The translations under genes and the position numbers were made by a program. Positions 37,668 to 46,873 of a stretch of 64,000 bases of DNA are shown one piece after another. How positions within the stretch are numbered: position 1 is the first letter of the stretch; each line of letters opens with the position of its first letter. Source of the DNA: Thermoanaerobaculia bacterium (lineage in GTDB: Bacteria; Acidobacteriota; Thermoanaerobaculia; Gp7-AA8); the NCBI GenBank assembly GCA_035569395.1, contig DATMNC010000011.1:67560-131559 (forward strand), given 5' to 3'. The notes below the pieces were generated by a model, which did no database searches, was not told the origin of the DNA, and saw nothing but the letters and a program-made list of their open reading frames with translations.

Positions 37668-37743
37668 TGGCTCCGGCAGTAGGACTCGAACCTACGACCC
37701 ACGGATTAACAGTCCGTTGCTCTACCAACTGAGCTATGCCGGA
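37668..37743 (-). tRNA. tRNA-Asn (anticodon GTT)
   Basis: The reverse complement reads UCCGGCAUAGCUCAGUUGGUAGAGCAACGGACUGUUAAUCCGUGGGUCGUAGGUUCGAGUCCUACUGCCGGAGCCA. It folds as a cloverleaf with anticodon loop CUGUUAA, T-loop GGUUCGAGUCC, and an encoded CCA. Confidence 0.9.
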
Positions 37744-40024: not shown

Positions 40025-40324
40025 ATGTCTCTTGAAGACACCTTCACCAATCTTGCCTCGTTCCTGAACAGCCTCGATGCCGAGGGTGAACAGAAGTTCG
40101 AGCTGTCACACTCACTCGTGATCATCTGTCCTGATTGCGGGAAGAACATCGCCTTTCGCGGACGCTGTCCGAAGTGCGGCGGCAACTCGTGGATTCCGGC
40201 CGGCCATACCGGCGGAATCTTCGAGCAGATGAAGGCGCAGCGATGGCGGACCCAGATGCAGAGCGACGAGGACGACATGGACGTCGAAGTCCGCGAGATG
40301 GAGGAAGCGCGGCCGGACGCGTAG
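40025..40324 (+). CDS. small zinc-ribbon protein
   Basis: CPDCGKN...17 aa...CPKCGG form two CxxC pairs; the tail is acidic. Start chosen at the Met inside track ORF 40013..40324. Confidence 0.45.
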   Translation: MSLEDTFTNLASFLNSLDAEGEQKFELSHSLVIICPDCGKNIAFRGRCPKCGGNSWIPAGHTGGIFEQMKAQRWRTQMQSDEDDMDVEVREMEEARPDA

Positions 40325-40376
40325 GATAGGCGCGGAATACCGCGTCGCCATCGATCGATGCGCAACACGTTCCGGG

Positions 40377-41108
40377 TCAGCTCTTCCGGCGACGTTCGCC
40401 AGCTACGTAATGCGAAACGAGCGCTCGTTGCCCATCAGGCTCAACCTGTTGCGGCCTGTAGCTATGCTCGGTAATCAACGCGATGAACGCCTCCGGCGAT
40501 TCGATCGCGGTCTCAAGCAGGCCTTTCGACATGAGGCTCATGAACAGCGCGCATGAACGCGCTTGGCAATTCACCGAACGCTCTGGGTTGAACTCGATAT
40601 CCGTAAAACCAGCGTATCTGTTCAATCGCAACAGCAGCCATTCGCGATGCGGATAAATCGCGTTGATGTACAGCCAATCGTAGAACGCGGTTTTAGGCTC
40701 AAGAGGGAACCGAATGTCCTCGAAATCGAAGCCGATCAAGCGTCCGGACTCCCTCAGCCGCGGATCGCGTTTCGCATCTCTTACATCTGCTCCGTAGAGA
40801 TCCGTGAACGGCCCGCCATGCTCGAATACCTTGCTGCCCTGGAACGCGCATTCCAGCGACATCTCACCATGCTGCCCCCGTACGTTCAGATGAAACGCGC
40901 TCAAGTGTTGCCCGACCTTCTCGGTCGACTTTGAGGAGATCTCCAGTAGCGGCTCGAATCCGGCCGCAGCCGCGGCCGCATGGAGCGACGCGACATTCTT
41001 CTGCTTCTGGACTGGCGCGAAACCCGGGTGCCACCTCAGCCAGAAATAGAACTCCTTTACGAGCTCGGGCTCATCGGGTACTGGTACAAAGATCGGTCGT
41101 TCAGCCAT
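40377..41108 (-). CDS. hypothetical protein, downstream partner of the DarT-like gene (candidate antitoxin / ADP-ribosyl hydrolase, possibly NADAR-like)
   Basis: Overlaps the upstream DarT-like gene by 8 nt. The segment LSAFHLNVRGQHGEMSLECAFQGSKVF loosely resembles the NADAR (DUF1768) SNF...G...EHxFQxxKF core; there are no macrodomain motifs. Lower GC than neighbours. Confidence 0.4.
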   Translation of the reverse strand: MAERPIFVPVPDEPELVKEFYFWLRWHPGFAPVQKQKNVASLHAAAAAAGFEPLLEISSKSTEKVGQHLSAFHLNVRGQHGEMSLECAFQGSKVFEHGGPFTDLYGADVRDAKRDPRLRESGRLIGFDFEDIRFPLEPKTAFYDWLYINAIYPHREWLLLRLNRYAGFTDIEFNPERSVNCQARSCALFMSLMSKGLLETAIESPEAFIALITEHSYRPQQVEPDGQRALVSHYVAGERRRKS

Positions 41109-41622
41109 TAGGGAAGTTCCGAATGAGGTCCAGCGAAATGAATCGGGGTACGAGGATTTCGCTTTTCTCAGCCTGCAACAGTCTCTCTCTGATCGCAGGA
41201 TCGCGCCACTCAGTCCAGCTATACAACACCTCGAAATCGATCATGTTCGCTGCTTCGTCGATTGGGTAGGCTTGCACGCCGCTTTTATTCGATACATCCG
41301 CCGTGAACAGAACCCCGTCCCACTGAAGAACTTCAGGATGCACGTTGAGGAAGATCGTATCGGTGATGCGCCCGTCCGCGCGCGCGACGTACTCCATTGG
41401 ATGCGTCCACCGGAAGCACAGATGCACGTACTCGTCGAGCCCTCTCATGCAGTCAGTATCGTGGCTCCACTGGTTTCCACCCGGCGCCGGAATCTCGATT
41501 CCTCGCCGCTTCATCTCCGCGAGCGCCAACAACCCTCCATGCTCGCGAATCGACGCAAGATTTCGTCGGTCCGTGAAGTGAAACAGAACGTTGATGCGCT
41601 TGAGTTGCTCTTTGGTCATCAC
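41101..41622 (-). CDS. DarT-like ADP-ribosyltransferase (DUF4433 family) toxin candidate
   Basis: LFHFTDRRNLASIREHGGLL (compare DarT IxHxTHxDNLxxIL), GLDEYVHLCF (compare GTLHDYVPFYF), and RLLQAEKSEILVPRFISLDLI (compare ERYQAEALIWQHxPISLL, including the catalytic QAE glutamate). Confidence 0.5.
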   Translation of the reverse strand: MMTKEQLKRINVLFHFTDRRNLASIREHGGLLALAEMKRRGIEIPAPGGNQWSHDTDCMRGLDEYVHLCFRWTHPMEYVARADGRITDTIFLNVHPEVLQWDGVLFTADVSNKSGVQAYPIDEAANMIDFEVLYSWTEWRDPAIRERLLQAEKSEILVPRFISLDLIRNFPNG

Positions 41623-41831
41623 TTACCCGATCGCACGATCGGTTCTGCCACCATCGTACGCTGTCCTACCCTCGTGCGTCGCCTCCTCGATCGCCTCCGA
41701 CCCCTGCCCGCCCTCGCCGCGCTCACGCGCGCTGCAACCCGAGTTGGGCGGGCGGAAGCCGGAGGCGCGACCGTTGCTCGCCTCGTACGTACGGATTCGC
41801 GCCTCGTGCAGACGCCGGCACTGCGGCCTAG

Positions 41832-43219
<1,388 letters not shown>

Positions 43220-45484: not shown

Positions 45485-46393
<909 letters not shown>

Positions 46394-46621
46394 AAACGTG
46401 CGTGCACTGGTCGGCGAGTGCGAGCTGACCGGCAACCGCACGACGTTCCTGCGCAACGATCGCCCCATCGCCATCCTCATCTCGCATGACGAATACCTCG
46501 CCCTGCGCGAGACGATCGACATCGCCGACGACGCTCCTCTCCGCGCCGCCATCGACGAGGGAGAGGCGGAAGTGGAGCGGGGGGCCATGCTGGCGGTGGA
46601 GGATCTTCTGGAATCCTGATC

Positions 46622-46873
46622 ATGTGGAATGACCGTTTGCGCTTCGCGGAGCGCGTGGAAAAAGACTGGCGGGCGCTGACCGGTGAACAGCGTGCCGCCG
46701 CGGCGCGGGCGCTGGAGACGATCGACGAAGATCCGATCATCGGCGCACCGCTGTTCGAGCCGTTGCGCGGGTATTGGAGTTACCGCAGCGAGGGGATACG
46801 TATCGTCTATCGCATCGTCACCGAGGCGCGCTTCATCGTGGTGTTGAATATCGGGCTGGTGATGGCGCGATGA
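46622..46873 (+). CDS. RelE/ParE-family toxin
   Basis: 83 aa with the C-terminus GIRIVYRIVTEARFIVVLNIG typical of RelE/ParE. It is tightly coupled to the upstream antitoxin and overlaps the maf start (ATGA). Confidence 0.7.
   Translation: MWNDRLRFAERVEKDWRALTGEQRAAAARALETIDEDPIIGAPLFEPLRGYWSYRSEGIRIVYRIVTEARFIVVLNIGLVMAR

Follow-up and report, generated by a model that had tools for sequence, protein, structure and literature searches.

A probable DarT–NADAR (DarTG1) toxin–antitoxin module inserted into a Thermoanaerobaculia chromosome

The 64,000-nt stretch of DNA analysed here (hereafter the window) belongs to a Thermoanaerobaculia bacterium (Acidobacteriota; assembly GCA_035569395.1, contig DATMNC010000011.1, positions 67,560 to 131,559) and contains a cassette of two minus-strand open reading frames (ORFs), darT followed by nadar, which overlap by 8 nt. 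We interpret this cassette as a horizontally inserted DarT–NADAR (DarTG1) toxin–antitoxin (TA) module working by the mechanism proposed below, and assign a probability of about 0.85 to this reading. The darT gene (41101–41622, minus strand) encodes a compact DarT-family ADP-ribosyltransferase toxin, and nadar (also darG1; 40377–41108, minus strand) encodes a 243-aa DarT1-associated NADAR antitoxin, predicted to be a guanine-ADP-ribose glycohydrolase. Both ORFs and their overlap had been described in an earlier prediction made from the letters of the window (hereafter the original prediction), and the ORF list and the sequence confirm them.

The toxin, its NADAR partner and their operon

The darT product matched the Pfam DarT family (PF14487) with 67.6 bits against a cut-off of 22.5 (E = 1.7e-18) and the PADLOC DarT model with E = 1e-12. 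Its AlphaFold2 model (predicted local distance difference test score 88.3, predicted template modelling score 0.85) was compared with the Protein Data Bank (PDB) using Foldseek. The eight best matches were all DarT structures, from DarT2 of Thermus and M. tuberculosis and DarT1 of E. coli C7, with template modelling (TM) scores of about 0.65 and identities of 18–21% (best match 7omy, TM 0.67), after which the ranking fell sharply to Tpt1/KptA and the pertussis and cholera toxins. The model makes us confident that the window toxin adopts the DarT fold, in agreement with the original prediction, which had called the upstream gene DarT-like and had expected an ADP-ribosyltransferase (ART) fold.

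The window toxin retains the family-core residues H15-F16-T17, N21, S53, D57, M76, and N112. Among 176 homologues with 33–79% identity to it, H15-F16-T17, M76, and E155 are conserved at 93–100%. Since every residue conserved at 95% or more across these homologues is also present in the window toxin, the toxin looks active. E155 (codon 41158–41160), in the segment KSEILVP, aligns with E152 of E. coli C7 DarT1, with E155-I-L-V placed on E152-I-L-V in both profile-to-sequence and profile-to-profile alignments. In the model, E155 opens the β-strand 155–159, and E152 of the window toxin closes the helix 142–153. Since this alignment and strand position are accompanied by 98% conservation of E155 as against 43% at E152 (E/R/K), we identify E155, and not E152, as the catalytic glutamate. 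The original prediction had placed it in a QAE motif; the likeness of that motif to Q150-A-E152 of DarT1 is, by the alignment, a coincidence offset by three residues.

The partner of the toxin had been regarded as unknown, with at most a weak NADAR-like core. Its NADAR identity stands, and neither "unknown" nor "weak" applies. The Pfam family PF22397, "DarT1-associated NADAR antitoxin", matches it practically from end to end (profile positions 1–211 of 212, 287 bits against a cut-off of 27, E = 6.9e-86), and the crystallised Geobacter lovleyi NADAR (PDB 8BAT) matches it with E = 2.7e-58 over 214 residues. It shares 45% identity with the NADAR encoded at an E. coli-type DarTG1 locus. A NADAR with 100% identity to it is on record from a Thermoanaerobaculia metagenome-assembled genome, a match that identifies the source organism of the window. 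Mutagenesis of the E. coli C7 NADAR has shown that hydrolysis of guanine-ADP-ribose depends on E88, K95, and D171, and rescue on K115 (Schuller et al. 2023, PMC11543638). Residue mapping places E88, K95, D171, and K115 at E86, K93, D170, and K113 of the window NADAR, and none of these four residues varies among the 22 aligned homologues (A2); the motif singled out in the original prediction, LSAFHLNV...ECAFQGSKVF, contains E86 and K93. The partner is thus unambiguously assigned as a DarT1-associated NADAR, with a predicted active site that is intact. No macrodomain match was obtained for the partner or its neighbours, and the earlier statement that the partner is not a classic DarG holds.

Other NADARs have been paired with different toxins. 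The YarT–YbiA and pierisin-type ART/NADAR pairs (PMC11125620, PMC12945103) resemble the window module in that a NADAR-superfamily hydrolase counters a DNA-base ADP-ribosyltransferase. In contrast to the window module, their toxins have no relation to DarT, and the NADARs involved are YbiA or "NADAR" proper, which also remove cytidine-ADP-ribose; the window NADAR belongs to the DarG1 clade.

The two genes are strongly co-conserved and form an overlapping operon. Run against one genome per species, the NADAR profile matched at least 600 stretches; 562 of these encode a relative, so that NADAR loci occur in at least 562 species genomes. We examined the best 80 loci, which come from Acidobacteriota, Alpha-, Beta-, Gamma-, and Deltaproteobacteria, Planctomycetota, Bacteroidota, Firmicutes, and Nitrospirota. 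A full-length compact darT lies directly upstream on the same strand in 65 of the 80. An exact 8-nt overlap with the sequence ATGGCT(G/A)A occurs in 46 of these 65 intact pairs, and a 1-nt gap in a further 14. The corresponding window overlap, ATGGCTGA (41101–41108, minus strand), holds the nadar start (ATG-GCT-GA) with the darT stop codon TGA inside it, and is, as this layout indicates, a translational-coupling junction. The converse arrangement, from darT to an overlapping nadar, was seen where it was checked: a conjugative plasmid of Xanthomonas and a conjugative element of Vicinamibacterales carry it. Co-conservation, named in the original prediction as a check on the TA interpretation, is therefore found.

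The remaining loci comprise ten with a partial darT beside an intact nadar (L003, L006, L020, L031, L048, L050, L059, L061, L064, and L069) and five with no darT, one of which is ended by a contig edge (the other four are L005, L013, L042, and L049). A decayed darT next to an intact nadar fits the expectation for a TA pair. Most of the partial or absent cases look like toxin decay or orphan antitoxins, although at L064 and L069 the upstream contig sequence is too short for a full-length darT. In the Vicinamibacterales locus (L165:1-8543), the overlapping DarT–NADAR pair lies amid genes for a TraG/TrwB coupling protein, a VirB11-type ATPase, a RepB primase, and ParB.

The layout agrees with DarTG1 of E. 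coli C7 and G. lovleyi (PMC11543638) in the order of darT and nadar on one strand, in a single-domain PF22397 NADAR with the E/K/K/D residues, in a DarT fold with H-F-T, Met, and Glu, and in the location of the module on mobile or variable DNA. It differs in gene spacing, with an 8-nt overlap in the window and a 3-nt gap in the E. coli-type locus, and in that the E. coli-type locus (L082, L083) lies between two phage-type integrases whereas the window cassette has no flanking integrases. UniRef and NCBI name such partners "DarT1-associated NADAR antitoxin family protein"; no model of PADLOC-DB v2.0 matches the NADAR partner, and the RefSeq plasmid annotation of hits H1–H9 reads "hypothetical protein". 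Automated defence-system callers may consequently report merely an orphan DarT for this widespread module.

The compact toxin and its predicted chemistry

In the proposed mechanism, a single transcript covering both genes would start in the upstream segment brought in with the cassette, and the antitoxin would be translated by coupling via the ATGGCTGA overlap. DarT would use NAD+ to put ADP-ribose (ADPr) on a base in single-stranded DNA, most likely on the guanine N2 amino group, and this modification would block replication with a bacteriostatic effect. NADAR would hydrolyse the bond between base and ADPr and so keep the cell viable. When the balance is tipped by phage infection or loss of the element, the modification would build up on host or phage DNA and replication would stop, which may result in phage defence, in stabilisation of the DNA carrying the module, or in both.

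We infer NAD+-dependent DNA ADP-ribosylation, guanine specificity, toxicity and rescue, and phage defence by analogy with characterised systems. DarT1 from E. coli C7 or G. lovleyi kills E. coli or halts its growth, and genomic DNA is ADP-ribosylated by both enzymes; cognate and non-cognate NADARs alike rescue cells from DarT1, and the E. coli C7 enzyme links ADPr to guanine N2 (PMC11543638). DarG1-type NADARs of E. coli, T. lovleyi, and S. fredii remove guanine-ADPr but not cytidine-ADPr (PMC12945103), and DarG1-type NADARs are inactive on thymine-ADPr (PMC11543638). DarTG1 is described in PMC11257639 as protecting E. coli from phage via modification of phage DNA, and its phage defence is credited to LeRoux et al. 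2022 as cited in PMC11543638. The antitoxin clade acts specifically on guanine-ADPr, and antitoxins paired with the two toxin types share 45–58% identity; the product of the window toxin is therefore most likely guanine-ADPr on DNA. A cytidine-ADPr chemistry was considered and rejected: PMC12945103, which describes it, deals with pierisin-type toxins, and the DarG1 NADARs leave cytidine-ADPr in place.

The toxin itself belongs to a large family that is separate from the E. coli C7-type DarT1. Members of this family mostly have 170–173 residues and form at least 809 clusters at 90% identity in a word-indexed search; an exhaustive search at E ≤ 1e-3 matched 1430 clusters built at 50% identity. 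The E. coli C7-type DarT1 family, with about 207 residues, gave 78 clusters in the word-indexed search, mostly from Enterobacterales. The compact type thus outnumbers the E. coli type in the searches run (at least 809 versus 78 clusters), and all of the best 80 NADAR loci carry a compact toxin wherever a toxin is present. No relatives were found when viral contigs were scanned with the compact DarT profile. Some compact-DarT homologues are longer, with N-terminal extensions of 150–230 residues that have no Pfam match, and one 438-aa protein carries two DarT-like stretches (P0243, P0249, P0311, and P0381).

Aligned by hhalign, the compact family and the E. coli-type DarT1 are related with a probability of 97.4% (E = 9e-12, identity 24%). 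The alignment matches H15-F16-T17 to H17-F18-T19, M76 to M71, Y78 to Y73, and E155 to E152 of DarT1. It places the variable C58 at the DarT1 residue R52 and R60 at D54. Judged from the alignment and their conservation, D57 (99% conserved) and N112 (88%) are plausible yet shifted counterparts of D54 and N104 of DarT1. Two polar residues of the NAD-binding loop, S53 and D57, are near-invariant; both sit in a predicted helix (residues 51–59), whereas the DarT1 loop is described as having no prominent helix (PMC11543638). In the ADP-ribosylating turn-turn (ARTT) loop, the compact toxins have the motif D-V-S-N-K, which includes N112, and DarT1 has T-N-A-A-S. The window toxin is also about 35 residues shorter than DarT1 (172 versus 207 aa) and has no C-terminal tail.

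With DarTG2, the DarT2–DarG systems of Thermus and M. tuberculosis, the window module shares the ART fold (7omy) and, by its proposed mechanism, the principle that a DNA base is reversibly ADP-ribosylated in a TA or defence role. However, DarT2 modifies thymidine, and its antitoxin is a macrodomain joined to a DarT-binding domain, unlike the NADAR of the window. The window toxin scores 26 bits on the NCBIfam toxin_DarT equivalog (cut-off 150), and C69, a small residue, stands in place of the Tyr of the DarT2 H-Y-E motif; the equivalent in DarT1 is Ser.

Several points weigh against the proposed mechanism. The window toxin is only about 20–24% identical to the crystallised E. coli C7 DarT1 and about equally far from DarT2, as judged by hidden Markov model score and fold. 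R52, which is essential in DarT1, has no conserved counterpart, nor is any Arg of the NAD-binding loop conserved, and the base-contacting N112 lies two positions later in the ARTT loop than N104. With this divergence and the missing R52 counterpart, guanine specificity rests on the antitoxin family, not on the toxin. Toxicity, rescue, and their chemistry are known only for the toxins of E. coli C7 and G. lovleyi and the NADARs of E. coli, G. lovleyi, and S. fredii, and no experimentally tested DarT1 could be linked to the compact clade; PMC11543638 and its supplement state no toxin sequence or length. No defence genes neighbour the cassette, and a phage-defence role in this bacterium is proposed by analogy. 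A scan for a consensus sigma-70 promoter found none.

As to the tested G. lovleyi and S. fredii systems, no compact-DarT match from either was found in the plasmid collection, and WP_014330845.1 was not among the members of the rhizobial NADAR clusters looked up. The G. lovleyi NADAR is 58% identical to the E. coli-type NADAR versus 47–55% to the NADARs paired with compact toxins. Since its NADAR is slightly closer to the E. coli type, there are hints that the G. lovleyi DarT1 is perhaps also E. coli-type.

Two more far-reaching interpretations can be drawn from this divergence. The compact toxins of about 172 residues that associate with NADARs could form a third, mechanistically distinct DarT clade that differs in mechanism, motif, or substrate (RNA, or another guanine context) and is still reversed by DarG1 NADARs. 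This idea arises because the compact toxins have no equivalent of the proton-abstracting Arg52 and have an ARTT-loop motif of their own; we regard it as doubtful. For the window module in particular, the TA architecture could be the same while the toxin is chemically unlike canonical DarT1, acting on another motif, on RNA or double-stranded DNA, or by another way of proton abstraction, with an adduct that is either a NADAR-reversible guanine or one to which this NADAR subclade has adapted. The low identity to the E. coli-type DarT1 profile, the equal distance from DarT2, the missing R52 equivalent, the predicted NAD-loop helix, and the ARTT-loop motif would all fit such a toxin. However, the antitoxin is a close member of the guanine-ADPr-specific clade with an identical catalytic constellation, the identity between the antitoxins of the two toxin types argues for one substrate, and the catalytic H-F-T, Met, and Glu of the toxin are conserved. 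We therefore consider a chemically distinct toxin rather unlikely and prefer the guanine-directed DarTG1 mechanism.

Recent insertion of a bare two-gene unit

The cassette lies between a zinc-ribbon gene (stop at 40324) and a LigB-family gene (start at 41844). It had been noticed for being richer in AT than its flanks, and the windowed GC content bears this out: the 1246-nt cassette has a GC content of 0.565 as against a window mean of 0.632 (z = −3.2), which makes it the lowest-GC stretch of its size in the window, with 0.08% of equal-sized windows as low. The drop falls mainly on third codon positions, where the GC content is 0.68–0.69 in the cassette genes versus 0.77–0.87 in neighbouring genes.

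Relatives in which the site is empty delimit the insertion. Empty sites are found in L084, L085, L090, and L091, with flanks 83–94% identical to those of the window. In L084 and L085, the LigB protein is 100% identical and the flanking DNA 91–94% identical, and 57–118 nt take the place of 1478–1479 nt of the window (BLASTN, MAFFT). This sets the insertion at about 40336 to 41813 (about 1.47 kb, boundaries ± 15 nt); it takes in both genes with some 190 nt on the upstream side and some 40 nt on the downstream side. The flank identity of 91–94% to the empty-site relatives indicates that the insertion is recent. All 80 metagenomic loci with relatives 59–100% identical to the flanking LigB-family protein lack the cassette. 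None of 80 other DarT–NADAR loci has any flanking gene of the window, including Thermoanaerobaculia loci with NADARs that are 71–86% identical. Among the close relatives compared, a DarT–NADAR pair occupies the zinc-ribbon/LigB site in the window only. The cassette is thus a recent arrival, a bare pair of genes that entered a variable intergenic site of this Thermoanaerobaculia chromosome. The horizontal acquisition that base composition had suggested in the original prediction is established by nearly identical relatives in which the site is empty.

Neither a target-site duplication nor a terminal inverted repeat or mobility gene could be found at the insertion, and we reject a transposon or integron-type insertion on these grounds. 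The gene for tRNA-Asn (GTT) at 37668–37743 (minus strand), the only match of an Rfam scan, was rejected as an integration site; it is 2.6 kb away, and relatives with an empty site also have the core genes in between. Homologues of the compact DarT are carried by 15 plasmids, eight of which are predicted to be conjugative.

The zinc-ribbon/LigB intergenic site itself (40325–41843 in the window, L084:4781-5000, L085:1503-1607, and L094:3720-4982) varies among close relatives. In L086, L093, L094, L096, L104, L138, and L154, the site holds a gap of about 1.3 kb with no DarT or NADAR match, and in L094, the one such locus whose ORFs were read, a 420-aa multi-pass membrane protein with no Pfam match is encoded there. 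The site looks like a small insertion hotspot.

The history of the locus also bears on whether the module still works. Loci with a truncated darT beside an intact NADAR (10 of 80), together with the four that have no darT, demonstrate that toxin loss with antitoxin retention occurs in this family, and the window cassette might accordingly be a decaying or domesticated remnant in which the toxin is inactive and NADAR is kept for, e.g., general repair of ADP-ribosylated guanine. We consider this very improbable for the window, where darT is full length and in frame with all the highly conserved residues including E155, the conserved coupling overlap is kept, and the insertion is recent. A chance juxtaposition of unrelated genes or an annotation artefact, for which nothing was found in favour, is already refuted by the operon in 65–75 of the 80 loci from many phyla, by the identical 8-nt overlap, and by the strong family matches of both proteins.

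Upstream segment, neighbourhood and significance

The segment of about 190 nt upstream of darT (41623–41813, minus strand) is missing from the empty-site relatives and presumably provides a promoter or leader. The darT gene can be read as 173 codons from a GTG at 41622 or as 172 codons from an ATG at 41619; the latter, used by gene callers and in the public calls for an identical contig, is likely the real start. A 13-nt motif, GTACGATGGTGGC (41647–41659), is common to the upstream regions of the closest relatives (L002, L004, and L007). An 11-codon upstream ORF, MVAEPIVRSGK* (41654–41619, minus strand), starts within GTACGATGGTGGC, and its TGA overlaps the ATG of darT (TGATG). In some relatives, the ATG of this ORF shares the reading frame of darT, and the DarT proteins called there begin about 10 residues earlier (P0001, P0004, and P0007). 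GTACGATGGTGGC could be a promoter or operator, part of a leader peptide, or an alternative start. The upstream segment also contains a GC-rich imperfect inverted repeat (41692–41713 and 41746–41767) with 22-nt arms that are 82% complementary and a 32-nt spacer. A terminator scan gave nothing meaningful.

About 5 kb from the cassette, the plus strand carries another TA pair, of type II and unrelated to DarT–NADAR. It consists of a Phd/YefM-like antitoxin gene (46359–46619; E = 2e-5, below the Pfam cut-off) and a ParE-like toxin gene (46622–46873; 28.1 bits against a cut-off of 23).

The original prediction of a DarT with a NADAR-type antitoxin as a TA module is supported by both family assignments, the intact residues, and the co-conserved operon. 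Its suggestion of a divergent, novel module is not, as the cassette fits the DarTG1 systems of PMC11543638. DarTG1 is a known module, characterised in 2022–2023, and its antitoxin has a Pfam family of its own; the finding is a confirmation rather than a discovery and leaves current understanding unchanged. What novelty remains lies in the abundant compact toxin clade, which is very far from the crystallised DarT1 and has no conserved counterpart of R52.

With this locus, DarTG1 gains a well-delimited example from an uncultured member of the Thermoanaerobaculia. To our knowledge, Acidobacteriota are a soil phylum with no experimental work on TA or defence systems. The empty-site relatives reveal that a bare 1.47-kb two-gene unit moves with no mobility gene of its own, and among the DarTs linked to NADARs in environmental genomes, the majority appear to be of the compact clade, which is very divergent from the sole crystallised DarT1.

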